Below are positions 3,119 through 63,543 of a stretch of 64,000 nucleotides of DNA, piece after piece; within the stretch, counting starts at the first letter, position 1; each line of letters begins with the position of its first letter. Below the pieces are notes generated by a model. The model saw nothing but the letters and a program-made list of their open reading frames with translations. It had not been told where the DNA came from and did not search any database. Origin of the DNA: Schmidtea polychroa (taxonomy: Eukaryota); assembly GCA_044892525.1 (NCBI GenBank), contig CM097885.1:204662001-204726000 (forward strand), written 5' to 3'. A program made the position numbers and the translations under genes.

Positions 3119-5422
3119 CACCTATCCCCCGATTTACACGGTAGATACGTTCCTGAGAAAAACGTGTAAATCGAAAATTAAAAATTTTCAAGTTAAAACC
3201 GTGTAAATCGAAAAGCTTGCAGAAAATGCATAATTTTGCTATTTAACAGTTGTGATTTTTTTCAATATTTTTAGGTGTACACAGAAATAAAAATAAAATG
3301 CATTGACAGGTTAAAATATGTAATATATTACGGAAACACTGTTTTTTTGTTTAATTACAATACATTAAACAGAAGAACAAAAAATAAAACCAAAGGTGTT
3401 TTATTATCCTTCATCACTATCAGAAATTACTCTCATTCTTTTTTTCGGAATCGAAGGTTGGAATTCATTTTCATCACTCGAAGTTATTTGTGCCGATTCG
3501 ATGTTTGAAGCAGAAATATTTACATTCTGAGAGGTGGTAATAAAATCGGTTATTAACAATTGCTTCGAATTTTTTGTAAGATATTTGTAAACTTCTTCAT
3601 TTTGAGCCAAGCAGCGAGTTATGTCACGTTGGAATCGTAAAGCCCTTTCTACGTTTGTGTCATTTTGTATAAAATGATTACCCAGCTTTCTTCCAAATGC
3701 GAGTCTTTCGCGGATGACTTTAGCAGTGAATGTTACTGGTACTAATTCCTCTTCATCAGATTTTTCAGACTCACTTTCGCAAACTAAGTCAACTAAATCA
3801 TCCTCACTTAGTTCTTTATCAGCCATTAACTCTGCGATATCATCATCAGTAAAATCATCAAAACCTTCTCCGCCCAATGAATGCGCCATTTGTACTATCT
3901 GCGAATATTCATCATTTAACGTTGAAATGGAATGTTCATTTTTGACTACATTTGGCCACATTTTTTTCCAACAGCTATTGAGCGTTGTTTGCTTAATCGC
4001 AGTGTATGATAAGGCGACATGCATCACACAGTCTAATATTGTAAAATTTTTCCAAGCACTAATAACTGTTAAAGATTCATTTTTCTCCATTTGTTCCAAA
4101 ATATATGTAAAGGCTCGTTTTATGTACAAAGCCTTAAAAGTAGAAATTATGCCTTGGTCCAATGGTTGTAATAATGAAGTTGTATTTTTTGGTAAAAATT
4201 TTACTTCAACGTTCTCATATTCTAGATCTTGTTGGTGACCCGGCGCATTGTCAATTAACAAAAGCACTTTAAAAGGCAATCCCTTTGAACCTAAATATTT
4301 TTGGCATCTGGGATAAAACATTCATGAAACCATTCAGTAAACATTGCAGCAGTAACCCACGCTTTCTTATTAGCCTTCCAATAAACGGGAAGATTTTTGA
4401 TGTTTACTCCTTTAAAGGCACGGGGCATTTTTGATTTGTTAATCACTAATGGTTTCATAATATAATCTCCTGAAGCATTGCTACAGAAAAGAATTGTTAT
4501 GCGATCTTTTGCTGCTTTATGACCACTAGCCGATTTGTAAAATTTTGAGACATAAGTCCTTTCAGGCATTTTTTTCCAGAATAACCCTGACTCATCGGCA
4601 TTGAAAACCTGATCAGGGGTGTATGAATTGTCGTTAATAATTTCTCCAAAATTTGCTGGATGTTCTTGGGCTGCATCTACGTGGCCAGAAGCCAGTTCAC
4701 CTTTTAATTTTAAGCTGTGTAAAGAATGTCTTATTTTAAATCTTTCAAACCAGCCATGACTTGCCAAAAAATTTGGCTTCTTTTCAGTTGAAGAAGATGG
4801 TAATTGCTCTACAATTTTTTCGTAAATTCGTACTGCTTTATTTGTTATAGTGGCCGTATCAATGGGTACTCTTTTTTGTGTTTGATCTTCTATCCAAAGC
4901 ATTAACGCTTTCTCCATTTTTTCCATTGCGATATTTCTGGTGTATGATGTTGTGCCCATACTCGTGGTTTTGCCAGCTGCAACACTCTTTCTAATTTTGT
5001 TTTCATTTGTTCTAATAGTTCTTATTGTAGCTTCGTTCATGCTATATGGTTTTGCAACATCTACTACTCTATCTCCCTTTCGTAAGCGATCCAAAATTTC
5101 GATTTTATTTTCTAAAGAAATAGTTTCTTTTAACTTCTTTCGACATTATAAGCCTATAATTTTTTTTAATTTATGTTAATTTATAATATGTAATCTAAAT
5201 TATGCACTCACTTTAAACTTTAATTTTATGCGAAGACACAGTGTGCATGTGCAGCAAGTCAGCACATAAACTCGGGATTCCCTGTAAGATGTGTACACAG
5301 CGCACGTGTTCAAACACAGTAGCATTTTGTAGAGTGCGATAAAAACAAAAAAAAAATATTTGGAAAACCGTGTAAAAGCGAAAACGTGTAAAACAAGTAC
5401 CGTGTAAATCGGGGGATAGATG
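3119..5422 (-). mobile_element. Full-length Tigger/pogo DNA transposon (2.3 kb)
   Basis: 25-bp TIRs CACCTATCCCCCGATTTACACGGTA (3119-3143) and TACCGTGTAAATCGGGGGATAGATG (5398-5422), one mismatch. TA target duplication on both sides. Internal transposase. Confidence 0.95.
3404..5146 (-). pseudogene. Tigger-type DDD transposase with two frameshifts (~5125 and ~4300)
   Basis: CENP-B-like HTH (FLASHGWFERFKIRH) and catalytic motifs FNADESGLFW, LIDNAPGH, LQPLDQGII. ATG at 5146. Both frameshifts fall in A runs. Confidence 0.9.
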
Positions 5423-14242: not shown

Positions 14243-17200
14243 CTAAAAAAGTGAATGATTTAGGGGCAAGCGATATCGGTTCTCTAACCTTTCGTCCTCG
14301 GTATTTTGTTTTTCCTGTTCTGCTTTGTCATGAGTTTCGCCTTTGAATTGGTTGAAACCTCTTTCGTTGAAACCACACCTTTTCTTGCATTGGTTTGCAT
14401 GTACCATAATTGGTTCTGCATTTCTATTTACTACTACCTGTAGTATTAAATTAGTATCCGTAGACCGTAATACATCATTAGGGCCTTTAAAATTTCGCAT
14501 AAGTTTGGGTGATAAGCCTTTCTTGTTATAGTGACTTTCTAGCATTACCTGATCTCCGACCACTATACCATGCTCTTCGGACCTACGATTGTGATAGTTC
14601 TCTGATGATTCCCGATTATACTTTAAACTGAGTCTCGGTTTTGCCCATGCCTCCTGCATGCGTTCTAGCATCTCCGTGAGATAATCCCTTTGATCCAAGT
14701 ACTGTGTTGCCTTGGGGAAGAACAACAAATCCACAGGCATTTTACTTTGCCAAAAACACATTAGATAAAACGGTGTTTCACCAGTTCTCTCATGAACAGC
14801 ATTACGATAAAAAAGATGGAATGTGGATATCCTAATCAGATTTTCCAGAATTTACATAGGACGCTAACATATTCGCCAATGTTTCGTTAAATCTTTCTAC
14901 CAACCCGTCCGTGTGCGGATGATATGGAGAAGTGTTCAATTTCAAAATGCCGAAATAGTCATTGATTCCCTTGAGCCGATTACACATAATATCCGCTCCT
15001 TGATTCGTTAGTAGTGTTGAAGGTACTTCATACCTAAAAACTATTTGTTCCACAAAATTTCTGGCTATCGTATCAGCCTTATGATTTGGAATTGGATATG
15101 CTTTTGGCCATTTCGCCAAATAGTCAAAAAATACTAGGATGTATTTTTTTCCACTGTTGAATTCTTTAAACAATCCCGACACTAGCACCGGCATCATTGG
15201 TACGTGTGATTTCCTTCCTGTGTTTCTCCTGGTGATCCAGATTTTACATGTCTGAACCATTCCTTCACATCTTGCTTGATTGTTAGCCAGAAGTACTTGT
15301 GCTTCAGCCGTGACAACATTTTCAGTGAGTTTTACGAGTGCTCCATCATAGCACTGCAACCTAAGTGCTTCCCGATATTTCTTCGGAACCATGATGATAT
15401 TATCCCTTGCATACGCGTACTTGACTAATCCCGTATTCCGACAATCTGCCAACACGACAATCCGTCAACACTAAAAAATTGGATAAGGCTGATATTTATA
15501 AAAAAATATATTTGTAGGTCATCATATTAAAATTAATTTACATGTACTTGTACAACAAATTTGCCTAAATAATCATTCAAATAAAAGCATTAAAATCAAA
15601 TACCAGTACCTTTATGATCAGTATCATTGCGACATGTTGAATGTGAGTAGTACTCTTGTAAGCAATATTTATAGGGGGTCAAAATATCTTGTCGGATAAA
15701 CTCAGAGTATATATAATAAAACGAATTAACTCATTCAAATTTATCACTGAATCAGTCAAATTATCACAAATTTTGATAAAAAATCTTGTATACCTCTCAG
15801 CCAGTTAAATTGTTTAAATATTTAATTAAAATTTTATATTAAACAATTACTAGTTGATTTTTATCTTTCAGCGGAGAATTTATTATTAAAATTTTAAAAA
15901 TATAATAAATTTAAAATGTATGTATGTTAAAACAAAAATTTATCGACTTTTTGGCAGATTGTCGCTTTGGCGGATTGTCGTACAACCGACTAATCCTTCT
16001 TCGAGTAATAATTAATCTCAATGCTCGTCCCAATACTTAGTAAATTCCGTCGTTGGTTTCCAATGCCTGTCGAATTGAATTGATCCCTTCGTCCGACTTT
16101 TTTGTTTCCATCAGATCTGCGATTCTCTTGGTTCTTCTTGACAACACAAAGAGTGTTTCTTCTAATATGTCTTCCTTGAAGTCTTCTTCTTCATTTCCTT
16201 GATACATTCGGAATAGTGCATCTGGGTTTCCGTTGTGGTATTTTTTTCTGTAATGTATTTCAATATCGTAGGGTTGTATAATTATTGACCATCTGACAAG
16301 CTTTGATGTATCTATTGTATGTTTGGTTAGCAATTGTAGAGGCTTATGATCGGTTTCAACGATTATCTTTCAACCTCATAAATACGTTCTGAATTGGCTT
16401 ATAGCGTAGACAATTGCTATAGCCTCAAGTTCAATCACTGTATAATTTTTCTCTTATAGCTTTAGTTCTCTGCTGGCATATGAAATAGCATATACATAAC
16501 CTAGGACATCTCTCTGAACTAGCACAGCACCAATAACCCGAGTGCTGCCATCTGTCATGACCAAGAATTGTTTCTCAAAATCTGGGAATCGTAGAAAAGG
16601 AGGTTCCAAGAGCAATTTCTTGAGTGTATCAAATTATTTTAATACCTACCCAAACAAATTTGACGTGGACTTGAGTCCAAAAAGCAATCAATGATTATTG
16701 ATGAGAAAATTCCCCAACATGTTCATTTGGGTTTTGCTTTCTATAATATAATTGTTATCTAAAGATTCTTCTCACGTCTCTAAGTAATATTCTAGTTCTC
16801 AATGCATCTCTCATTTCTGCCCACGTTTTAGGTACGATGAGAGCTGGTAATGCCATTACTTCATTGTACTTTTCTCTTGAAGATCCTTTCAAATATATTG
16901 GCAATCTTTGAATAATTATATTGTCCGGGTTGGCATTTGCTTTTGCCATCTTATAATATTCTGACATATATTCGGGAAATTCTCATGAATCCTCAATGAA
17001 TGCCTTAACAGGCAGAGCAGGATATCTTGCGAATACATTTGCAATAACTTCCTCTGCAATTTGCTTCTTTAGTTTAATTTGCGCACGAGTTCCAAACGCT
17101 ATTTTAAATTTTACTTCACAATATGCCAACCAAAATGTTAGGTTTGCAAGTGGGTTGTACGACTAACACACTCACTCGATCTGACTCTAAGGTGTGTTCA

Positions 17201-27077: not shown

Positions 27078-27870
27078 CGGGTCACCTCATAAAATCGACT
27101 TCTAGTACATCGATTTTTAAAACATCGAGTGTGAAAAGATCTACTTTTAGCCTTAAAACATCTATTGTCGAAAACATCTACTGTCAAAAACATCAACTGT
27201 CAATAACATCTAGTAATAAAAGGCAAGAACATCAATCGCCTAAAACATCGAGTTTAAAAAACCTTTTTTAATTAAATGCTCTCATCATTTTTTAATTTTA
27301 ATAGTTTTTTTTAATTTGTTTAATTTTGAAACCATCTCTTTTCGTTATATTTTCATCAATTTAATTAATTCAACAAATTTTAATACTCCTCTGTTGTATC
27401 TTAAAGTACCGTTGTGTGTCCTTTTCTTCCTAAAAAAAGACTTGTACACGAATCGTGCGGGCGTGGTGTGTGTGTTGAGTACGACCAGTCCCCATGTGAC
27501 CTGTACTCCTCGGGGGTCAAAATACTTTGTCGGATAAACTCAGACAAAATGTGAATGTTTATATCATAGCTTCCCAACCAGTGTGCCGCGAAACATTTTC
27601 GTTATATTTTCATCAATTTAATTAATTCAACAAATTTTAATATCAGATGAAAGTTTAATTAACCTCAATTAATTTAATTTTAATTTGTAGATGTTTTAAA
27701 ACTCGATGTTTTAGAAGTTTTAAAAGTAGATTTTATTGACAATCGATGTATTTGTTGTTGATGTTTTGGACTCGATGTTTTAGACAGTAGATGTTTTCAC
27801 CAATAGATAAATTAGAAGTTGATTATTTTGTTGTTGATTATCTAGAAGTCGATGTTTTGGGGGCGCGCCA
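27078..27870. repeat. Foldback-like element with arms built from AAAACATC(GA) micro-repeats; contains a 46-bp direct duplication (~27339-27384 / ~27597-27642) around copy 2 of the dispersed repeat
   Basis: Left arm has tandem AAAACATC units, right arm has GATGTTTT units, and the ends share ATCGACTTCTAG / CTAGAAGTCGAT. Confidence 0.55.
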
Positions 27871-38408: not shown

Positions 38409-41400
38409 TTAATCACTCAATTGTACATCATCAATATAAATTTCGTCACTCAATTGTACATCGTCAATATCGATATCGTCAAATGTATTGTTCTGGGATT
38501 CATACCAATCCTCATCATCAAAGCTCGGACTCATTCCGCCAAAGAGAGGGCCAACTTCAGATACCTGGTCAACATCTGGAACATCGACTCCTAAAAAATG
38601 TCCATATGCGAGACTGGTATTAGGACCCACCCAAAGGCGCTTGTCATCGTTGTTCGACAAGGCTATTTTATTATTTTTAAAAGTAAAGAGCTGGTGGTTG
38701 CGTGTTCCTATTCTCGATTGTGGCACTGTATATACTACGTTGTTGTTGTAGCAGTCTAAATACGACTGGTGCCCGATTTGAGTCCCTATCAATTTGACTC
38801 CCTTTGCTTTTAAATGATCTTTAGCCCCTAACAAACTATAACACTTAGGGCGTAAGAAAACCCACTCGCTATATCCCAGCCCTTTACTCTCATCCTTAAA
38901 CTTCCCTATAACCGAATCCAAGCTCTTAGAATACAAAGGATGAGCAGGATCGTAATTTGACGTGTCTAGAAGGCTGTCTCTTATCATTGCCGGCAAAAGA
39001 GTGTCAAGCTTACAGTGCTTTATCTCTAAGAAAAAGGAGTCGGTGTCGCCGGCAACAATATTTATTTCGCAATTAAACTCTGTCCTATATTTCGCCAGTT
39101 CGTTATATTGCAGTTCATACATCCTCAGTTTAGACAGATCTAGTACTGTTTGACCGATGTAACTAGGCCTGTCTAAACATATAGAGTCCTTATTCAGATG
39201 GGCGGCTATCAAGTTCTCATCAATTTTGATAGATTTTCTGAAAGTTGGCTTTGAGGCATATACAATCATCTTTTCAGCTGAATTGCATAGCCTCAAATTC
39301 ATCCTTTTCTTTAAGTTCTCAACGGATTTCCCATATACGCTGTTGTTATAAAGCTTAAACAAATCTCTATATAACTCACTGGTGGATTGTGCTCTTAATG
39401 TTGTGTTTTTATTTATATAAGAACGAAATATAGGTGCTTGCGTGAATTTAACTGCTCTATAAATTTTAACAACCGTCGCACCGAGTGAAAGATAAAGTTT
39501 AAGAAGCCTCCAATGAAGAACATAGTTCTTCTTTGGCCAATGCGTGAGCATCAGCTTCTCAACTTTGGAGTTCGGTGGACACATCTTTTCTGCGGCAATA
39601 GGAAAGTCATTAAGGAAGTCATGCAAGCATTCAGGTATATCGATATCAACTTCCATAGAATACCCATATGGAAGGTTATCAATATCATCATTCACACATT
39701 CAGAAAGTATAATATCCAAATCATCATACACCCATACAAAGTCAGCATAAGGCAGATTTTGGCTTAAGGCCCAACCATACAAGTTATTAATATCAATATA
39801 CAAGAGTTCTGTGTCTTCAGAACTAGCAACATAATGTTTGTTAACAAATGTTAACCCACCCGTATCCCTCCTTCATAGAAATTAAACATTTCCATGTCCT
39901 GCAAAAGTTCTATGGGTTCCCTTAATGTCATAAGCGCTGAAGCCCATGACATACCGGGAATTCCATAGAAATTAAGAGGTTCAAGACCATTGTAAGCAAT
40001 GGCCTTTGCACGGAATTGTTGAAAATAATCTGCGAGGAGAAACACGTCTAATTAAGGGTAGGTTAACATGTAATCTAACATGTTGTTGCAATTTTGCTGA
40101 GTCCAAATAACTTGGGCTAATGCATACTCATCATTAGACACAGAATCCCAGATAGGAGGTAATTCAAGAGTCGATTCCAGAATCTCAAGAGTGTGGCAAA
40201 GTCATAAGGAAAGATACCTTTGGATCGAACAATTGCGTCATCGAAAACAGAAGAAGTTAAAGGCAGATCGGAAAGAGTCTTAACCGCTTTTGCTAAAGAT
40301 GAATTAACAAACTGCATGCTGTCAATAAAACGAACAGGCAGTTTGTTAATGTACGCGATGAGAGAGATGAATTTTTCTGTAGTGGTCGGAATAATATTTA
40401 ATTCCCAAGAAGGAAAATTTTTCAAACCATACTTCAAAATATGATGGAGATCATACCCCCTCAAATTATGAAAAACAACAGGTAACTGTTTCTGAATTCG
40501 CCGAGAAACATTGCATTTCCTACAAGCAGCACCTAAATACTTGCCTGTGAAGTGGCAATGGTCCCTAACTCTATCTCTAATGAATTTTTTACAAAGGTAG
40601 CAGGTCCTGGAATCTCTATATGCCCGTTCTTCAATGAAAGACAAAGTTTGAATAGGTTTTCGCCCATTCATTTCGTAATATGGCAGGACAATTGTGATAG
40701 CAATTTCCTCCACCTTACGAAGGAAAGACAACACACAATCCTCACCAACAAACTCATAATAAAATCTTGTGTTATTATAATTATAAATTAAAAGCATGCC
40801 TGCTGTTATTGGCAAGTGTATTTGGTGATGGGTAATATCCTCAGGTAAAATTGCCTCAAAATCGGCATATATTACGAATGGCGGGGTGACTGTTTTGGAG
40901 TAATCTTTAAATATTAAATTTTTATCTTTAGGTAGGGTGTATAATGTAGTACCTATCTGGTTCTTACTGCATATTGCAACATGAATATCAAATGCTTTTT
41001 CATGTCGAAAACCATTGAGACAATGGGGGCACCAGTTCACTTTAATTCTAACACCGCATTCACTGCTAGTGACAATTCATTAATCTTTGTAAGTTAAAAA
41101 CTGCGGTGTAATGAAAATTATCACCGTCTTCCAATAAAAGTAAGTATAAGGGTTCACCACCTATAACCTTAGATCGGTGAATTATATCCAATTTGGGATG
41201 ATGTGGAATATAATTATCATCAACTATATTTTCAAAAGGCTTAGCTGAGGTCGTTCTATAAGTTAAAACATTTATTGCTAAATTTAAATCCTTATTTTTC
41301 ATCTCGAATTTAGGAATATCACATAGTTTCATTGGACAGTCGGAAATGGGGTCAAAATTTAACTCGTCAAGATAATTTTCATAGGAACTAGCACGGTACC

Positions 41401-42480
41401 TATGACTATGTACGACATTACGTTTTAAAAGTGCTAAAATACTATATATAAAGCACATATCATCAGTGTTTTTAACGTTTACTATTGCATTTTTAGAATT
41501 TAAAGCTGATGGAGTGGGGATATAACTATGTCCAGCTAGCCTATTCATATGTGTAAATTTTGTTAATATAAAATTTATTTCTTTGATTTTAACCACACGC
41601 CATCCGCTACCTAAATATGTGAACTTTTCTATTTTCTCATTTAACTTAGTGATACCCTCTACTAGAAAATTATCTGAAAAAACCTCTGCATTATTAGAGA
41701 AAAAATTATCTCTAATTTCCCCATCTTTCTCGAATTGGATTAAAACGGCAAACTGAATTTTAATTGTGCCCATACCTACAATTTCGGCAATTAATTTATT
41801 TATAATTTTATTTGTAAGGGAAATTTGCACCAAGTTATCCTTTTCCATATTAAAGCGTAAATTTTTTCTCGCCCCCTTAAAATCGACTTCTATTTCTGGT
41901 TCATCGTCAATATCGATCGAACCACCTATTTGATTATATACGGAATCACCAGTTGTATTAATTTTAATAATTTTAGAGGGAACACCAGACCCAAAACTAA
42001 CAGCAGGACGTTTATTATTTATCACAGAAGGTTTTATCACAGAAGGTTTTATCACAGGAGCAGCTATATTCACTGGAGCAGTTATATTCACAGGAGCAGT
42101 TATATTCACAGGAGAAGATATAATCAGGGGCGAAGTATTTGTAGAGATATTTTTTGTTATAGGTCGCGAATTATTATTTACATGTGTATTATTTGCAGGT
42201 CGCGAATTATTATTATTTACATGTGTATTAAGTGTATTATTTGCAGGTGTTTTACTTTTTATTTTATTAAAAAGTTTCTTTTTATTTATTGTATACTGGT
42301 TAAGATGAGTCTTATGGGTCATATAAAAACACTTATATTTTATATTTTGGGCTGTCTCGCATATGGGACAAATATAGTAGTTGATGCCATAGAATCTATG
42401 ACCATAATACCTTTTCATGGTCTTATGACATAAATTGGAATGGCTTATTGAGGATTGGCAATATTTACGATATAATTTAC
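38409..42480 (-). pseudogene. polB: Protein-primed family B DNA polymerase (pPolB) with N-terminal region, endonuclease VII-like Zn insert, exonuclease and polymerase domains; three frameshifts (~41068, ~40190, ~39860) and one in-frame stop (~40052)
   Basis: GSGW...GHSYIPTP...AIVNVKNTDDMCF; IYADFEA; CYLC...RDHCHFTGKYLGAACRKCN; VFHNLRGYDLH; FIDSMQF; KGIFPY; YIDINNLYGWAL; KLYNNSVYGK; AGDTDSFF; LRPKCY; KAKGV; NDDKR. Confidence 0.95.
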
Positions 42481-42662
42481 CTATTAACGATAAATTATAA
42501 AAGATGATGTAAAATATTAAAATCAATTGTTATTAGTTAGTCTATTTTTATGATTATAAAAAAGGATTAACTATTAACCATTAAAAATAATAATCTATAA
42601 TATTCTTTATGTTCAAAGATAGTTGTATTTATTAATATTATTATAAGAAGAAGTGTAAGTTA

Positions 42663-42708
<46 letters not shown>

Positions 42709-43169
42709 ATTATTTTAACTAATGTAGTTGCTCATTGCAAACTACAAGGAATATTTTAAAGCTATAGTTTCTTAATCACTTTTTTTTTTAAACATTTGCA
42801 TAATTTCAACATAACAATTTCATTGTTTTCTCCATTTTCGTCATAATAATTTTTATATAACATTTTCATCATTTTCATAATTTTCATAATTTTCTTCAAA
42901 TTTTCATCATCATAATTTTCGTCATTTTCATAATTTTCAGCATTTTCATAATCATTTTTATTTTCTTCATATCATCATATTCTTCATATCATCATTTTTC
43001 ATCATTTTCTTCATATCATCAATTTTTCATCATATTTTTCATATCATCATAATTTAATAATTTAATAACATAATAAGTATTACAAAAATTTTTATGCAAA
43101 TGTTTAAAAAGTGATTACGAAAATTTTTAAATTTAAAAAATAATATATAAATAATAAATCAATTCTTAC

Positions 43170-43659
43170 ATTGAGATTCCTCGTCGGAATCATTCTCAGA
43201 GAGGCCATTATCATTTTCTGCTATCTCCTCATTAGAACTGATGACATTTTCTGCTACCTCCTCATTTGAACTGATGGCATTTCCACCATTAAATAATTCA
43301 TTATCCAAGTCCACATTAAACTCTAAATGATTTTTTTTTAAAATAATATACAAAAAATAAAATAAATTTACTTTCAGCATCATTTTCTCTTACATTAGGG
43401 GCATCAGTTTGCCCAATAAACACGACATCATCGTCGTCACTAATTGTAATCGTTCTAAAAACAAAATTAATTTCATAAAAATTAGAATAATAAATTTACC
43501 TAAAATTCGATCCACATTCAATATCGTCTCATCCTCGGTTACTTCGAACCAGTCAAAAGAATCTAAATAAAAATAATTAAAATAGAATAATAATAAAAAT
43601 AATAATTTACCAGTTGTTAAAAGACCACGTAAAATATTGTTGCTTGATTTGTTCGACAT
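43170..43659 (-). CDS. Four small acidic exons inside the element (43659-43611, 43562-43500, 43454-43372, 43322-43170); possibly the spliced 5' end of polB
   Basis: GT-AG introns of 48, 45 and 49 nt. Reads MSNKSSNNILRGLLTTDSFDWFEVTEDETILNVDRIL-E-TITISDDDDVVFIGQTDAPNVRENDAEKFNVDLDNELF...DSDEESQ, which requires one missing A at the start of exon 3. Confidence 0.55.
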
Positions 43660-44101
43660 TTTAGATTGTTGTTGTATTTTCTTCATTACAAAGGAAAACA
43701 ATTAAAATATATTAGTAAATTCTTTATTTACTTACTTTATGGATACTAAAACGAAAGAAATAAAGTTATATTTAAATAATTTAAATTAGTTATTTAAAAA
43801 TATTTAAACAATTTAGTTATTTAAACAATAATATATAGTATAATTTTATATAATATTATATAATATTATAATTTATGTATTCTAAATTTATTAATAAATA
43901 TAGTATAATTTATATAATATTGTAAATTTAATATATCCTTCATTTAATTTAAAAATTTATAATGAAGATTCTTTGAATTAAAAAAAAATTCTGTTAATAT
44001 TTCCAGACAGAAAACAACGAATTCAATATTTAAAATCTTAATTTTCATGTTGTTAGGATTGTGGCCAGAAGTTAATCGCCATCTAATCATTTTTCTCAAT
44101 T

Positions 44102-44308: not shown

Positions 44309-44622
44309 TAAATTTTTGTGAATAAATTATTAAAATCCTTTTCTTTATTGGCTTCTTGATACAAATCATCGATAATGATGACATCATCTCTCTTCAAACG
44401 ACTTGACCAGTTTTTATCAAAACCCTTTACTATTTTTATGTTTTTCAACTGACAGAAACTTGATTGCGTCAATCCATGTTCTTCATCGGCGCCTCTATGT
44501 CAATAAATATTGTTGAATTTTGTTTTGAAGAAATTAGATTTTAGTAATTTACAAACAAATAATGTTTTCCCGCTACCACTCGGACCAACGATTTGGTATA
44601 CTGCATCATTTCGTAATTCCAT
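44305..44622 (-). pseudogene. A32/FtsK-like DNA packaging ATPase, N-terminal half (not in the ORF track)
   Basis: MELRNDAVYQIVGPSGSGKTLFV (Walker A), TGA at codon 41 (44502-44500), DDVIIIDDLYQE (Walker B), DFNNLFTK, then truncated. Confidence 0.87.
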
Positions 44623-44729
44623 TTTTTAAATTTAAACTATATAATTATTGTTTATATTGATAATTTAAATGAACTCCGTTTTAAAATAACTATATATATA
44701 ACAGAGTTTTTTATAATTATTTCATTAAA

Positions 44730-45194
44730 ATGCTTTCAAATATAAATTACAGGGCAAAAGCTGATGTATCAAAAATGGTATTTCCAATGGGGAAACCACA
44801 ACAACTCATCAATAGAAGTAAAAAATATCCAATAATATATTTCAAAACTGGTAAATGTAGAATTATGAGATGTAAGGAAATAATCAAAGCTAGTGAATAT
44901 AATGTTTATGATTTAGAAATACAATCGATAACCGTAACTTCCGATATAGGTTTTTCTTGTAATTTAAATGAATTGGCTAAATTAATACCATGCTTTTATG
45001 AACCAGAATTATTTCCAGCTTTGAGATATATAAAATATAACCCTATGTGTGTAAATATATTCGCTAGCGGTAAGATAGTAATTCTTGGAATAAAAAATAT
45101 TGATTACAAATGTATAGTTGATAATATCATATCTGAAATTAAATCAATAATTGAAGGAAATGAATTTTTAGATTTTTTATTATCACTTAATTAA
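44730..45194 (+). CDS. Divergent TATA-box-binding-protein (TBP)-like protein, 154 aa, intronless and intact
   Basis: Two TBP-like repeats: LSNINYR...IIYFKTGKCRIMRCK and IQSITVTSDIGFSCNLNELA...YEPELFPALRY...VNIFASGKIVILGIK (compare canonical YEPELFPGLIYR...IFVSGKVVLTGAK). Confidence 0.88.
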   Translation: MLSNINYRAKADVSKMVFPMGKPQQLINRSKKYPIIYFKTGKCRIMRCKEIIKASEYNVYDLEIQSITVTSDIGFSCNLNELAKLIPCFYEPELFPALRYIKYNPMCVNIFASGKIVILGIKNIDYKCIVDNIISEIKSIIEGNEFLDFLLSLN

Positions 45195-45315
45195 TTATTT
45201 ATCATTGCAAATTCAATGCAATTGAAATGCATGATTCTGATTGGTCGAAATCTAATTGGCTGATGATTATTTATAACAAAATGTTTTCGGTTTAGTTGTC
45301 ATTTATTCAACAAAA

Positions 45316-45725
45316 ATGTACAACATACAAAGTTCCGCAATCACCTCAATGAAAGAGCATGCAAATTATGGTAATTTCAAATTTTTATTATTACATTAAT
45401 ATATATTTTTTTTACAGATGAATATCAATCAATTATCCTGCAAAGATTATGTTTCTATTATCCAGAATTAAATGAAATTCTACAAGATAGAGATCCAGCT
45501 ATCATTCCGGATTTGATATACAACCAAACACGAATCTGGATATTCGATATAATAAACACCTTTCTATGGGATATCAAGATAGGAAGGGGGATGAAAGAAA
45601 TGAAACCAGAAATTCCTTGCATTTTCGGATGTAGCTGTTGCAATTTCCGTTATCAACAATATGTTGAATGGTGTTTGGTGAAGACTCTGAGAAATCATCA
45701 CTCGAGTCAGATTGTATCAAAATAA
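45316..45725 (+). CDS. Element-encoded 120-aa protein with a CxxxCxCC cluster (exons 45316-45370, 45418-45725)
   Basis: 47-nt GT-AG intron gives an open frame MYNIQSS...LCFYYPELNEILQDRDP...PCIFGCSCCNFRYQQYVEWCL...VSK*. AATAAA overlaps the stop. Confidence 0.7.
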
Positions 45726-45965
45726 ATTTTTATGTTGAATTGTTTTGTTTTTGTAAATCGAAATAATAGAAATAGAAATAATAATAGAAATAGTAATATT
45801 AGAAATAATAATAATAAAAAACAATATTTATAATAAAAACATTAATGCTACATTAATGCAAATGACATGCAATTTAAACAAAGACATGTAGCAATCTGAT
45901 TGGATGATAAACAATAGTCATAGGTATAAAAACTCTGTACCATTTCATTTTAATCATAATTCACG

Positions 45966-46385
45966 ATGACAAAGAAAATTTCAAGCACTGAAAAGTCAAA
46001 AGTTGTTCCAGAACTTGTACAACCTGTTCAAATGTTCCAAAACTATAAAATGTATTTTTTAAAAGAAGAAATCAATATGAAATTGGTGTCACCGATCAAG
46101 CTAATTCCAACTAAATTTCAATTCTTATCCGGCACGCTTTCAATGTTAGATGTTAAATCTATTGATGATGTTTTCAAACGGTTGAATACGAATCTATCTT
46201 GTAATCAACATGCATTTTTCAACAACCGATATGCAAGATTTTATGATTCCTTTGATGAAATCAGCTTCAAAGAAAACGAAAATTGGTATATAACAATTGC
46301 AATCCAAGGATATAAAGTTGATAATAATGATGTGTATTCACCAATTTGGAAAATTATGTCTGCTAGACTTTCACAGTTATTTTAA
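45966..46385 (+). CDS. Element-encoded 139-aa protein, possible OB-fold ssDNA-binding protein
   Basis: Intact ORF with TATAAAA at 45925, ATTGG at 45899 and AATAAA at 46396. C-terminus WYITIAIQGYKVDNNDVYSPIWKIMSARL has a beta-beta pattern like viral OB-fold SSBs. Function is inference. Confidence 0.65.
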   Translation: MTKKISSTEKSKVVPELVQPVQMFQNYKMYFLKEEINMKLVSPIKLIPTKFQFLSGTLSMLDVKSIDDVFKRLNTNLSCNQHAFFNNRYARFYDSFDEISFKENENWYITIAIQGYKVDNNDVYSPIWKIMSARLSQLF

Positions 46386-46472
46386 TATTATATTTAATAA
46401 ATGTATTTAGTTATATTTGTTTTCGCTTATTTTCTATAAATAAATATATACTATAGTTTTAAAATACTAATA

Positions 46473-46831
46473 ATGACTACAGAAAAAGGTTAATATGATT
46501 AGTTAATTATCAAATTATTTAATATTTAGAATTTATAATAAACTTTTTATTGGAAAAATTAGCAGAAATATCTGGTGTGAAAATGGAGGATATATTATCT
46601 GTTACAAACGCATTAAATATAGACTGGGTAGCAGAGAGTGAAGATTCGGGATTTGATGAAACATATGAAGAAAACACTCAAGATGATGAGGAAAGCATTC
46701 AAGAAATTGATGAACCTATGGAGGAATTTACGGATACTGAACCGTGTGTATATAGGGATTGTATAGATCATGTTGTTGAAAACGTTATCAACTGTGGAGA
46801 TGATGAATGTGAATGTGTTAATAAATTTTAG
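46473..46831 (+). CDS. Element-encoded 105-aa acidic protein with a C-terminal Cys/His cluster (exons 46473-46488, 46530-46831)
   Basis: 41-nt GT-AG intron gives MTTEKEFIINFLLEKLAE...SEDSGFDETYEE...PCVYRDCIDHVVENVINCGDDECECVNKF*. The stop coincides with the inner edge of the right TIR. Confidence 0.7.
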
Positions 46832-47240
46832 TGTATATTTAAAGTATAATTTCTTTGTTAAAGTTTTGTCTTGAATATTTTTACCAGTAACTTTGTGAAC
46901 AATATCCATGTGACTTGTTGAGTGTGAGCAGTACCCTGGTGAGCAGTACCCTTAGGGGGACAGAATATTTNNNNNNNNNNNNNNNNNNNNNNNNNNNNNN
47001 NNNNNNNNNNNNNNNNNNNNNNNNNNNNNNNNNNNNNNNNNNNNNNNNNNNNNNNNNNNNNNNNNNNNNNNNNNNNNNNNNNNNNNNNNNNNNNNNNNNN
47101 NNNNNNNNNNNNNNNNNNNNNNNNNNNNNNNNNNNNNNNNNNNNNNNNNNGTCTTGGATTGGGCTTTAAAATGAGCTATCGTTTAATAAATTCGGATAAT
47201 GGGAACGATAACTGGCCGGAATGGCCCCATACCATCTACT
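46831..47240. repeat. Right terminal inverted repeat (partly in the N gap 46971-47150; lacks the equivalent of 36340-36661)
   Basis: Direct inverted alignment to the left end as above. Confidence 0.85.
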
Positions 47241-58274: not shown

Positions 58275-61200
58275 CTCGGTTAAACGCAGCTCTTCAAATT
58301 TCACTGGAAAGCTACAAGCAGTTTCTGATTTTGGACAAACCATAGAATGAGGACACTGGGAAAACCATTAAGAAATACCTGGCTTAATAAATTATTTACC
58401 GGTGAAAATATTCGTGCGGGGTTTTCGTCATTTTCAGTGCTAGCCACAAGCCAATCTCTTGCTTCGAGTATTGCTTGAAAACCAGCTTTTGTGCCTTGTT
58501 CTATGAAGATAATAAATTTGCCAGTTTTCTGCCATAAATTTGTAATGATTTCTCGTCGACTCAAATATCCACCTGCAACATCGAGTAAACTGTAGCAACT
58601 GATAACTATGTCATATTCAATGTCGACTGAGGTCGAAAAATAAGACCGATGCGTAATCCCTGGCAAAGCAGTCAGGTGTTGTTTTATTGCCCCGTCTTTC
58701 AATAAAAATTCTGAAATCGACAACAAAGTTGTTGACGCATCAACAAGAAAATGCTGCTTTATAGTGCCTATCGGCCAAACACTGTTGGCTGCCCTAAAAA
58801 TACCTATTATCTAATTCATTACTTACAAATTAAACATTCTGTAAACCAGCCACTTCAACTAATAACCAGTATTTTTCAACATCTTTTTAATCGTGTCCTT
58901 TAATTTAATTTAAATTAATTTCTAAGGTAAGCAATATGAAACCTTTACTATTTAATTACCGAGAAATTTATACCTATTAATATCCATAAATACATAGGAT
59001 TATAAAAACATCTTATCAAATGTAAAAGGCTAAAAAAGAAATTTAACTTAATATTTTACTTATAGTTTGTCAGTAAAATATTAGGTTTAACTTATTTCAA
59101 AATAAAATAAATGAAATACTATAGAGCAGAAATGGGTAACCTTTTATCAACAATAGGTGAGTGAAAATATTTTTTAAGTGTATATGAGAAAATCTTTTTC
59201 TAACTTTCAACAGTTTTATTAAAACCGTGTACTAAAAAGTGCCTAATCAATTTTATTAATAAGGAAAATGAAATTCAAATTTAATATATAATTACAAAGA
59301 TAGAGTAATAAAATACCAATAAAATTACAGTAAGGAATTGGTATATTTTATTTAACCCTTTCCTATCCTGTGCTTATAAAAATTATATATAGTGAAATGA
59401 GTAAATTTAGCTGCATGAGGTTTAACTTTGACTTTGAACTAATAAGAATACAGACATATCAATATGAAAATACCTCACGTTTCTATATATATATATATAT
59501 TTCTGTCGAAGAAAAAACAATTTGTAGGAGTAATCAATTATATAAGTTTCTAATATTTGATATATAATATAAAGCAATGTATCTATTTTCTTAGAAATAC
59601 TTCTTAAAGATGGTCAACCAAATGCATTGTGAGGAAGTTTTAGACAAAGATTTTTTCTAGTGGGTGCTATTAAATCTGAAAGTAATGATTGAGGATGTTA
59701 GTTTGAAATTAGAAAGTGATATGAAAATAGAGGAGAGTTCATATGATTAGGACAACGAGATTAGCGATACTAAGGATCAAGATCGTTGAAAAAAGATGAC
59801 ATCCAACAGATTGTTTCGAAAAATATCATTCCCGGAATAATTACATTTTATAAACTGTAAAACTAGAGACAAATTGAGAATGTAGAAGACTAATTTCAAG
59901 TTCTGTGATATAAAATTATTATTTCTTAAAGCTCTAGTATTTTGATCACCCACTGTAATTCCCCAAATGTATTGTTTTTTGGTTAGCATGGTTCTCAATT
60001 TGGATTATTGTTACGTTTTCAGAAAAAAGCGGATCCAGTAAATACAGAGTCATATACCAAAAGATTACCGCAGAAATTTCAATAAGCATTGCAATGTTTC
60101 AGGTTTTTCCATAATCGATTAAATCTGTATAAAATCTCTATTTACCTTTTCATTGTTTCTTGAGATAGTTTATAATTCCATTATTAGCAGGAAATACCGT
60201 ATATACTTGCGTATAAGTCGAGTAAATTTTAAGAGGTTTTTAAGTCCTAAATTGGAAACCCGCGTATAAGTCGTAGTAACAAAAATAAAAAAAAGGTTTA
60301 ATGATTTCATTAAAAATTAATTTGTACGTTTTTTGACCAGCGTATAAGTCGAAGTGGCTATTCTGACTTGAAATTTGACGTAAATTTCTCGACTTATATG
60401 CGAGTATATACGGTAATTGATGTTTCACTGCTCTTCTATGTCCAAGATAATGCCAGTTTGAATAGTTGCCAATGAAAAGCATGCTTGATTGCTATAGCTT
60501 TAGAAAGTAAAAATAAATTATCATTTATTTCAACCTCCACAAAGTATCAATTCATAACAATAGGACAGAAGTTTCAATTAAATTACGATTAAGAGATATC
60601 TTCAAGTAACATCAGATATCTTTTCATTTTTAAATTACTATTTTCATATAAAGAATTAAATTTTTCTTTTAACGATATAAGTTGTTTTCCAAGTTCTTTA
60701 TCCGTTTTTCATAAAATTTACTTCCTTTCAGCTTCATTAGCATTAACTTTTACAGATGATTCCAATTCATATACTGCTCCGCACGAACTGATATGATCTC
60801 ATCATATTTCATACTTGTCGATTCTTGTTTTTTACTCCGAATGTGTATTTATGTTACTACTTAAAGAAAGTGGGGTACCCCCACCCCTTGCTCCTGGTTA
60901 GTGCATAAAATTTCTATTTTCCTCTAGCAGTGTGGCACTTTTAGCTAATTCTCTAAAAATCATATTTGCACTCAAAGGACTAAAATAGCAAAGTTTATTT
61001 CCATATAAGACCAATTAAAATTTTATCGATTAATTTTCATAATATATCTGACCAGTTTTTTACATCAATTTCCAAGTTGTTAAATCACATGAAAGCCATG
61101 GGCTCAAATTGATCAAGTTTTCGAAAAAAACTTTTAAAAATACTTTGGTAGAAATTAAAAATATATTAATTATACTTTTAAAAAATATTAATTATATATA

Positions 61201-62161
61201 TATATTGATAATTGATATATTTTAATATCAATAAAATAATAAAAATGATGGATTTTTGGTAGCAGCATAAATTAGATGTTTACAGGGTTGCCAACTTTTG
61301 AAGATGTCATTATAGTACAATATGGACAAAATTATAGTATTTTCAAAAAAATTATAGTACATATTTAAAAAACTACAAAAAAATGCTTTTCTATTATAAA
61401 CTTTTTATTAAAATTAAATTAACAAAAATTAAAATATTTGGTTTTTCTTCAGGACCCATTAAAAAATATACATAAAAACAATAGCAAACAAATTCATATG
61501 ATAATTAAGTAATAAATTTATATGTAATAATACTTATTATATATTTATAGTTACATATAGCATAATTCTATTTTGATTTAAGCGTCAGTCATACCCTTAA
61601 TATTTAAAAAACGTACTATGTTTAGAAAAACACATGAACTTTGAATTTCAATCCAACAAAACAAATCAGATGTTAATTTTTACCATCTGCTCATATTCAT
61701 TATTCATACCGAAATACGTTTTGTAAAAAATTAATATTGATTAAAGTTTTTTTTAGAAAAATTCTGATTAATTGTTTTCAGAAAATTAAAATATCGTAGT
61801 GAAAAAATGTTTTAGATAAATTTGTTAAAATTATAGTACAATTAGAACTTCCAATAGTACATAGTACACAAGATACAAATTATGGTACAAATACTATAAT
61901 TATAGTACGGTTGGCAACGCTGGATGTTTAACACGTAAATGATAAGATAAGATTAAGGTGAAAATTTTACACATAATAAAATTTAACATTTTCTATCACA
62001 ATATTCATTTTTATAATTTTTATTATACAAACGTTTTTTTATCAATTTCGCGCTAATAACCAATATGTATAAATAAATTTATGACTTTGCTTCCGAACTG
62101 GAAAAATATCCAATAATCACTCATAGGTAACAAGAGGTGTTTGATGGCAAATAAATAGCTG

Positions 62162-62205
<44 letters not shown>

Positions 62206-62865
62206 TTGAGAAGATTATTTTTTATAAATAAATTCCTTTAAAAATTAGTTTTAATAAGGTTATCAAAAGTCGCAAATAAAACTAATTTAAAAAAATCAAT
62301 AATATCAGAGCACAATTGATTATAATAATCTTCAATTCTTTTTTAAACCTATCTATCAATATTTTGTTTTATATTCAATACAAATTTGTTGATCGATAAT
62401 CTTAAATGAGAAATGAAGACAAAAAACTCGAAAAAAAAGATCATTGGTTGAAGATTTTAATGATAAATTAATAGAACAGATAAAATATTGCAACACCCAC
62501 CAGACAGCACTACCGACTCCTGAACCGAAATCATATAAATTAGCCGGCATGAATTTTGGACATCGTTTGCGAATTTCATAGAAAACTTTGCAACTGGCCG
62601 CAAAATTTGGGGCTAACCGACCGACCAAATACAAATTCGACAGATTTGTCGAATATCTAATAGCATTTGGCTTATCGTCTATTTCGTATTTAATAGATGC
62701 TTCAACGCTTTTCCTGAACATTTGGGAGATTACTTTATAATTGACAGCATCATTGAGAAATAAATCTTCAGATTTGCCATCATTATTTAATGAATTTTCC
62801 ATTTCAAGCATATTAGAAGATATTTTCTTTTTTGCGATATTTTGAATATGTGTTTGTAGATTTTT
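58275..62865 (-). CDS. METTL17: METTL17/RSM22-like mitochondrial small-subunit assembly methyltransferase, partial (exons ~62865-62501, 58793-58400, 58355-58275)
   Basis: YLVGRLAPNFAA...LYDFGSGVGSAVW|AA; YDIVISCYSL; IFIEQGTKAGFQAILEARD; IFSP|CPHSMVCP...CSF. GT-AG junctions are phase-compatible. First and last exons not located. Confidence 0.87.
60197..60413. mobile_element. pogo/Tigger-type MITE in a METTL17 intron
   Basis: TIRs CCGTATATACTTGCGTATAAGTCGAG / CTCGACTTATATGCGAGTATATACGG with TA TSD. Confidence 0.85.
61283..61922. mobile_element. hAT-type MITE in a METTL17 intron
   Basis: TIRs CAGGGTTGCCAAC / GTTGGCAACGCTG; perfect 8-bp TSD GATGTTTA; subterminal TATAGTAC repeats. Confidence 0.87.
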
Positions 62866-63543
62866 CTGTTTTAATGATATAAAATGATAAAAAAAATAGC
62901 GAAACCAAAAAATAGTATAAAAAAATATAAAATTAGAGGAACCAATGGTTATTAATTCTAAAATATTTGGCTATTGTTTTTTCACTGTTACTAGGTTAAA
63001 GAAACGTTTTTATTTGAATTTGGTTTGAAATTGTAATTGCTGATAATATTTCTCCTCAATAAATTGAGTTAGACTAACAAATGAAAGCTTAAAACCTTTT
63101 ATGGAAATAAAATTCACTAAAAACATTCAAAAATTTGAAAGTTACTCGAGAAGAAACTCGAGTAAAAATAAGACAAATTTTATTGAGCTTAATATATTGT
63201 TCTGCTCATATAATAATATATTACATCTAGAATTGATCAGATCTGTACACCTTGCTCGTGATTCATGGTAGAAATTAAGTATTTACAATAACTTTAATCG
63301 ATAACATAATCTTTTATTTCAATATCTGAAAATCGACTTTTTAAAAATCGAATGCATAATTTATTCAATTCCACCAAGTATTTCTTTTAAAACTGTAAAA
63401 CTACGGTCAATATTAAAAATTATTGTAATCAAATCTAAATTAATGATTGAAAATTTTGAATATCCTAATTTCCCCAATATGACCAATTAATCAATTATAT
63501 ATTTATTCTAACGAAAAGCACCAAATCCAATATATACATTTTA

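Follow-up and report, generated by a model that had tools for sequence, protein, structure and literature searches.

The Polintons, Mavericks and adintoviruses (Starrett et al. 2021, PMC8502044; Barreat and Katzourakis 2021, PMC8097293) carry, in the sections of these papers relevant here, terminal inverted repeats (TIRs) starting with AG, a protein-primed DNA polymerase (pPolB), an A32-like packaging ATPase, an rve integrase, capsid genes, an adenovirus-type protease and an accessory region adjoining a TIR. According to the passages of PMC8097293 that treat them, 96% of vertebrate genomic copies are degraded, and vertebrate Mavericks have no introns. In KSHV, the relevant parts of PMC12529657 and PMC6541308 describe a viral TATA-binding protein (vTBP), ORF24, as a 752-aa multidomain protein that belongs to a six-member complex, binds RNA polymerase II (Pol II), has all four intercalating Phe and uses the box TATT; a section title of PMC12529657 has it predicted not to bind TFIIB. 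We analysed a stretch of 64,000 nt of Schmidtea polychroa (GCA_044892525.1, contig CM097885.1, 204,662,001 to 204,726,000), hereafter the window, in which a 9.5-kb unit with a TIR at each end, an internally deleted Polinton/adintovirus, encloses four genes, g1 to g4. We judge it quite probable that these genes form the predicted early-gene arm of a probably decaying Polinton copy and that, in complete relatives, the compact TBP encoded by g1 reads an 8-nt box, TATAAACA, and turns on the virion genes. With the described Polintons the element shares the AG-start TIRs, pPolB, the ATPase and the position of the accessory region; its relatives add the rve integrase, putative capsid genes and, by a weak match, the protease. 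It differs from them in that this copy has neither integrase nor capsid genes, and in that its lineage has a compact TBP, an SSB-fold gene (SSB, single-stranded DNA-binding protein), short spliceosomal introns and the repeated TATAAACA box.

A scan of metagenome contigs with the TBP confirmed 55 loci out of 86 candidates, many of them on short contigs and some near-duplicates. The longest, L004 and L007, have long open frames and hold an ATPase, an rve integrase, pPolB and putative capsid genes, the last named from position and similarity, their open reading frames (ORFs) having no Pfam or PDB match. Upstream regions were compared for 14 ATPase genes and 40 TBP genes. The ATPase set comprised the window, L057 and 12 metagenome loci, the 16 loci with an ATPase having been reduced by one duplicate, one truncated and two weak ones; the TBP set comprised the window, L057 and those 38 of the 55 loci in which the start could be read. 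ATAAAC was found between -60 and -15 in 13 of the 14 ATPase regions, against 1 of the 40 TBP regions. The TBP regions were marked by an initiator-like (Inr-like) TCA[TC] near the ATG (35 of 40, against 2 of 14), by TATAWAW (18 against 1) and by the CCAAT box (9 against 0), which backs the early-type Pol II promoter signals that an original prediction, made from the window sequence alone, had reported in the arm. L001, which has giant-virus-type genes and is the single IMG/VR locus obtained with the TBP alignment, was excluded from the motif counts. IMG/VR scans with g1 alone, g3, the ATPase and the putative capsid protein gave no confirmed relative, and the TBP alignment had no match in the genome contig collection.

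Across 24 loci of at least 2.7 kb and the window element, 72 of 147 ATAAACA sites preceded an ORF start, mostly by 31 to 38 nt; permuting the letters of the motif gave a median of 10%. In nine TBP-family loci, the virion strand had 62 copies of YATAAACA and the opposite strand 5. L057, which was retrieved through its ATPase, has a compact TBP (E 1e-47) and seven boxes on one strand. The strand pattern of TATAAACA was not seen in L058, whose TBP is canonical-looking and 185 aa long (YATAAACA counts of 1 versus 3). A search for further TBP-less controls yielded only L060 (no TBP seen; 2 versus 2) and L061 (2 versus 0), both partial. The C-terminal YKQ of the ATPase is invariant, and its codons share DNA with the box belonging to the following gene. 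The TBP of L058 (11568-12122) is a second type of Polinton TBP, canonical-looking in both repeats. L057, L058, L060 and L061 are Polinton-like contigs binned in bacterial metagenome-assembled genomes, probably by contamination.

In the window, the start codons of the ATPase and TBP genes are separated by a 107-nt spacer (44623-44729), as originally described. It holds a back-to-back pair of promoters: a canonical-type TATA, TATATATA (44691-44700, + strand), predicted to be early, faces the TBP gene, and a TATAAACA box (44656-44649, - strand), predicted to be late, faces the ATPase gene, its ATAAAC lying 33 nt before the ATG. This second promoter class, which faces the ATPase, was overlooked in the original prediction.

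The g1 gene (44730-45194, + strand) encodes a two-lobed compact TBP of 154 aa. It matched PF00352 at E 6e-14, and its AlphaFold model (pLDDT 96) has the two-repeat saddle fold of that family; in Foldseek the best PDB matches were cellular and archaeal TBPs (E 6e-9, 22-28% identity), followed by giant-virus TBPs. In a protein search, 94 of 117 candidates were homologous, mostly 144-160 aa long and 35-58% identical, near-identical copies aside. The likeness to cellular, archaeal and giant-virus TBPs lies in the two-lobed saddle and in the second repeat, which aligns at YEPELFP and IFxSGK. Apart from the low identity, g1 differs from the cellular and archaeal proteins by a shortened first repeat and changed DNA-contact columns, and the family TBP falls short of the cellular core by about 30 aa. 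RNA polymerase genes of their own are found in giant viruses but not in the 13-kb Polinton elements.

Among 56 aligned TBP relatives, N6, P23, F38, R44, M46, E91, E93, F95, N109 and F111 were invariant, and S66, T68 and R99 nearly so. Positions were transferred to yeast TBP through HMMER alignments with solved TBPs for the second repeat and by eye for the first; on this mapping, N6, P23, R44, M46 and N109 fall at V71, F99, V122, T124 and L205, which Table 1 of PMC12529657 gives as DNA contacts together with N159 and V161. S66, T68 and R99 lie at or beside contact positions, N159 and V161 included. I194 of yeast TBP was presumed to be a contact position in this mapping. Instead of the canonical four intercalating Phe, three are invariant, the fourth being apparently the invariant Pro23, and several contacts are replaced. 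Since the invariant residues fall at contact positions of yeast TBP, the DNA-binding face of the family appears to be conserved yet non-canonical. In cellular TBP the EPE stirrup binds TFIIB; E91 and E93 of this acidic stirrup are invariant in the family, for which TFIIB binding is predicted. At residue 47 the window copy has a non-conservative change: the 56 other sequences of the alignment have one and the same residue there, and the two near-identical members of its cluster do not share the change.

A close parallel is the vTBP of beta- and gammaherpesviruses (the parts of PMC12529657 and PMC6541308 dealing with KSHV ORF24). Both show polar replacements at the equivalents of V122, V161 and L205, and in both a TBP fold encoded by the virus goes together with an altered TATA box upstream of structural genes, late timing being predicted here. 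The family TBP differs from ORF24 in being a bare 150-aa core that has kept the EPE stirrup, in having an apparent Pro for one Phe, and in its box, TATAAACA and not TATT. Moreover, none of the five partner activators of ORF24 was found among the ORFs of L004 and L007, and g1, at 154 aa, is not a multidomain protein of the ORF24 type. By analogy, g1 may work like a herpesvirus vTBP without being a member of that family or of its viral pre-initiation complex (vPIC).

The second gene of interest, g3 (45966-46385, + strand), is intronless here and encodes a 139-aa protein with a predicted OB fold, a putative SSB of the T7 gp2.5 type. With its model (pLDDT 89), the four best matches among 48,161 chains were African swine fever virus (ASFV) CP312R, DUF2815, the Enc34 SSB and T7 gp2.5 (Z 7.1-6.6, root-mean-square deviation 3.0-4.7, 102-125 aligned residues), the next row having Z 5.3; all four have the gp2.5/Enc34-type OB fold, but with Z under 8. 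Foldseek gave 18 viral matches at E<=0.001 (viral E 2e-5), those with names being uncharacterised giant-virus proteins, and there was no Pfam support. The likeness to T7 gp2.5, Enc34 and ASFV CP312R concerns the fold of the model; g3 is only 4-10% identical to these SSBs and lacks an acidic C-terminal tail, and its binding of single-stranded DNA is predicted. On the model, g3 is likely an SSB. The TBP-like and SSB-like labels first given to g1 and g3 therefore find backing in the Pfam and structure searches. Close homologues of g3 formed a single cluster of 9 members in the protein search. In the metagenome, homologues were found by tblastn in 17 loci (25-39% identity) and by profile in 19 of the 55 TBP loci, while 16 had the ATPase. 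The fixed core of the arm is the TBP gene with g3, in variable order and orientation; the idea of a conserved four-gene cassette has to be given up, as only these two recur together.

At one and the same point, 13 of 18 g3-homologous ORFs, that of L004 among them, had a 41-46-nt GT-AG intron, several near-duplicate loci being included in this count. The intron was missing in L007, L009-L011 and the window copy, and in L014 a donor only was present, with no acceptor called. L033 has a tandem pair of g3 homologues, both with the same 43-nt intron. Because 13 of 18 homologues carry an intron of this size at the same point, short introns are, by this sequence comparison, native to the lineage. With such an intron already present in the complete relative L004, they are no sign of host adoption. 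That they are 'host-sized' agrees with one host example, a 44-nt intron in an Rsm22/METTL17-type gene of the window (58301-62970, - strand), which also has longer ones. Conserved in relatives with full gene sets, the short introns would point to nuclear, spliceosome-dependent expression.

The remaining two genes of the arm were modelled from open frames and splice signals only. On the + strand, g2 (45316-45370 and 45418-45725) encodes a predicted Cys-tipped protein of 120 aa and has a 47-nt GT-AG intron (45371-45417); g4 (46473-46488 and 46530-46831) encodes a predicted acidic protein of 105 aa, with a Cys/His tip, DSGFDET (of the form DSGxxxT, which we take to be a degron pattern) and INCGD, and has a GT-AG intron of 41 nt (46489-46529). 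All four + strand frames, of 154, 120, 139 and 105 aa, and both introns were thus recovered where they had been predicted. No homologue of g2 was found in the protein search (1 candidate, none at E<=1) or in the Atlas (best 0.81), g4 had no usable Atlas match, and a phmmer comparison of the second exons of both with loci L001-L060 gave no relatives (best E 0.12). The arm of relatives holds other small acidic or Cys-rich ORFs, unrelated to g2 and g4. The g4 protein resembles the adintovirus Oncoid, as section 3.2 of PMC8502044 presents it, in being small, acidic, Cys-tipped and located in the accessory arm, and in its INCGD and degron-like motifs; it differs in that exon 2 has neither a strict LXCXE nor a paired CXXC. 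Against the Oncoid pattern of LXCXE and a CK2 site beside a paired CXXC, the second exons offered only INCGD in g4 and one CSCC in g2.

The g2 promoter (45216-45259, + strand) comprises ATGCAATT, TCTGATTGG and the second ATTGG; that of g3 (45856-45931, + strand) comprises ATGCAAAT, ATGCAATT, TCTGATTGG and TATAAAA. The 9-mer TCTGATTGG, picked after its occurrence was seen, is present twice on the + strand of the window, where chance would give 0.2. As both copies lie in these promoters, each with ATGCAATT, we conclude that the module common to g2 and g3 is real. TATAAA also occurs at 46435, upstream of g4. The motifs previously reported, ATTGG at 45240, 45255 and 45899, TATATATA at 44691 and TATAAA at 45925, are all in place. 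ATTGG by itself is weak evidence, as it occurs 76 times on the + strand of the window and chance alone would put 0.17 and 0.34 copies into the two spacers. AATAAA does lie near three stops (g2 at -4 and +88, g3 at +11 and +54, g4 at -11), but g1 has none within 100 nt of its stop, so that its description as monocistronic is not supported. AATAAA is modest evidence: of positions drawn at random from the element, 18% have it within -10 to +60.

The left TIR of the element (37427-37581, + strand) has its outer end at about 37427 and begins with AGAGT, which fits the AG/AGT ends of Polintons and differs from the vertebrate (AG)3 or (AGT)2 motif; the outer end of the right TIR (46831-46970, - strand) lies inside an N gap (46971-47150). 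The arms are 94% complementary over at least 140 nt (37442-37581 and 46831-46970), with 142 of 152 aligned bases agreeing. On the - strand, pPolB (38409-42529), which has an endonuclease VII insert, matches PF03175 (E 7e-6) and the pPolB of L004 and L007 (37-56%), and is broken by frameshifts near 41070, 40190 and 39860 and a stop near 40053. At 37751-37902 (- strand) the 3' end of the polymerase occurs a second time, in degenerate form, and runs into an N gap. The ATPase is reduced to its 5' half (44311-44622, - strand; 64-68% against its closest relatives, the range for pPolB and ATPase together being 37-68% against L004 and L007), with an in-frame stop after codon 40 and homology ending at 44311. 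A predicted acidic gene (43159-43686, - strand) with three introns of 45-49 nt has an apparent frameshift, as its exon frames fail to join at one junction. By eye, exon 2 of this gene looks like an acidic ORF of another locus (L016:939-1484), itself behind a TATAAACA box.

The rve integrase of the relatives, present in L004 and L007, had no match inside the element, and the putative capsid ORFs of L004, L007, L057 and L058 had no tblastn match in the window. The loss of virion genes put forward originally is in line with this; we read the absence of the integrase as a deletion. Outside the four-gene arm, 6 lesions were counted in about 4.66 kb of element. From this rate, 2.0 would be expected in the four genes (1566 nt) and 0 were seen (P = 0.13; P = 0.32 for g1 and g3 alone). 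The claim that the arm 'remained intact' is therefore not supported, its open frames being within chance and g1 being altered at the otherwise invariant residue 47. The deletion would have begun in the middle of the ATPase and taken out almost all box-bearing target genes, and the survival of the arm is most likely due to nothing more than its position beyond the deleted part. Passive survival is the simpler explanation for an arm without its targets in a copy whose pPolB is broken, and we are rather confident that this copy is an ordinary deletion remnant, probably decaying. For this particular copy the outcome is deflationary.

For the complete relatives, we propose the following sequence of events. 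Host Pol II would start the TBP and SSB genes from ordinary TATA, CCAAT and Inr-like promoters, and the host spliceosome would take out the 41-47-nt introns. The g3 protein, with its predicted OB fold, may coat the single strands displaced in protein-primed replication. The viral TBP, its acidic stirrup kept and its DNA face rebuilt, would then bind TATAAACA some 31-38 nt before the ATGs and recruit host TFIIB and Pol II to the ATPase, core and capsid-module genes. From sequence comparison, it is reasonably likely that the lineage has such a TBP-and-box switch from early to late genes. We lean slightly towards the more specific view that a 13-kb Polinton/adintovirus lineage runs a true early-to-late cascade through one captured, shrunk and rewired 150-aa TBP that redirects host Pol II. 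If so, L058, with its full-length canonical-like TBP and no box, would resemble an earlier state.

Several observations weigh against this reading. No ORF start lies in range of 75 of the 147 ATAAACA sites, and the early signals are incomplete, with TATAWAW in just 18 and CCAAT in 9 of the 40 TBP regions. The ATPase of L057 has no box between -60 and -15, the nearest being at 95 nt. As the box also precedes the g3 homologues of L009-L011 and some accessory genes, the early/late split is not pure. The box-less controls are just L058 and the incomplete L060, which are more distant and lower in GC, so that lineage and TBP type are confounded. For g3, a Z of 6.6-7.1 is within the range that the tool rates common. 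Some of this would suit a model in which a host factor, either a Forkhead protein or a tolerant host TBP, reads the box, while the viral TBP acts on its own early promoters or soaks up TFIIB. The box matches what we take to be the Forkhead core, RYAAAYA; its co-occurrence with the TBP stems from few independent lineages, some of the genes behind it are non-structural, and a TBP about 30 aa shorter may have lost partner surfaces. We nevertheless think a host reader rather unlikely: the fixed spacing of 31-38 nt between box and ATG is TATA-like, the DNA-facing residues are invariant and non-canonical, which argues for selection for a different DNA word, and L058, with its canonical-looking TBP, lacks the box pattern.

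Passive survival of the arm has in turn to be set against selection after virion loss, the arm acting in trans as a spreading non-autonomous regulator or as a host-adopted module. A P value of 0.13 leaves room for this, and four open frames with intact splice sites and promoter motifs do contrast with 6 lesions elsewhere; both TIRs are retained, and near-identical DNA occurs in several sequencing runs of one organism. Full-length protein relatives close to g1 and g3 exist, in a protein database that favours open frames. We regard selection as improbable, given that the absence of lesions is within chance, that the TBP is altered at an otherwise invariant column, that the TIRs differ at 10 of 152 bases while pPolB is broken, and that the introns are older than the deletion. 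More doubtful still is the proposal that g2 and g4 are chance open frames in AT-rich DNA, or that the element is an assembly mosaic of copies, as the missing homologues and the two N gaps within the element or bordering it, one with a second copy of the polymerase end beside it, might suggest. Against this stand the TCTGATTGG/ATGCAATT module that g2 has in common with g3, the canonical GT-AG introns of g2 and g4, of the size usual in the lineage, and the small acidic or Cys-rich ORFs that occupy the same arm in relatives.

The TBP-and-box switch is apparently undescribed in the searchable literature, whose coverage leaves out most subscription journals and in which no description of a mechanism for a Polinton TBP was found. 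Within the sections of PMC8502044 (preprint 10.1101/697771) available for comparison, 'TBP' occurs only as a figure-legend label for MELD viruses, and its one text supplement is without the term; the corresponding parts of PMC11161782 and PMC10748475 do not mention TBP or a promoter, and TATAAACA did not occur among the literature matches listed. New here are the SSB-fold partner, the intron conserved in relatives, the contrast between L057 and L058, and the finding that the intact arm is within chance. A self-encoded TBP and a matching 8-mer box would put the timing of Polinton capsid genes, and the existence of a real virus cycle, to a direct test; and the box, standing before nearly every virion gene, would allow late genes to be recognised from sequence in elements that have not been cultured. 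If the switch is real, its TBP would be a natural one of altered specificity, and the switch itself would be smaller than any other known for late viral transcription and a case of convergence with the herpesvirus vPIC.

The accessory genes of the relatives comprise, among others, one for a ubiquitin-conjugating enzyme, one for a dual-specificity phosphatase and one for a leucine-rich repeat protein (L007:222-719, L002:4008-4316 and L031:1918-3327). An ORF of 154-164 aa with a DEDD-like start (D-x-E/Q-G/A-F) recurs beside TBP or capsid genes (L007:9591-10055, L029:2913-3404, L024:1828-2316, L057:10736-11212); its L007 copy had no Pfam match. A small ORF beginning with MG, a possible site of myristoylation, was seen in L004, L005, L007, L009, L010, L039, L050 and L057; it follows a box and either shortly precedes the start of the integrase gene or overlaps it.

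The 10-mer of the TIR was absent from the 56 loci compared, and matches to its 16-mer on 29 viral contigs were attributed to chance, none of these contigs having a profile match to TBP, g3, ATPase or capsid. Further ends like this TIR were seen in the window at 15601-15726 (79%) and 27473-27544 (about 75%), each with C[AT]GAGTYTATCCGACAA; CWG precedes the three similar TIR-like ends. No Polinton genes were detected next to these two ends, which possibly belong to other subfamilies or to gene-less satellites. NuwaI (PHIS) transposon ends, which the relevant part of PMC4482050 describes as having a CWG target site duplication and TIRs of 12-61 bp starting with GGG, were rejected, the TIR here being at least 140 nt long with no GGG start. 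The ends at 37400-37440 and 15690-15725 have a common outer TTATTATATATACTC flank, a candidate for the true end or for a target preference, and an ACTC-W-GAGT palindrome spans the presumed terminus. Left of the element, 36624-37375 consists of satellite-like tandem units of about 206 nt, and an inverted piece related to them lies right of the N gap (47151-47213), which may bear on the insertion site. Elsewhere in the window, a pogo/Tigger-type transposase (DDE_1, HTH_Tnp_Tc5) extends across two frames (3404-5145, - strand), and a decayed long terminal repeat retrotransposon pol with rve and RNase H (14243-16369, - strand) is broken near one of the TIR-like ends.

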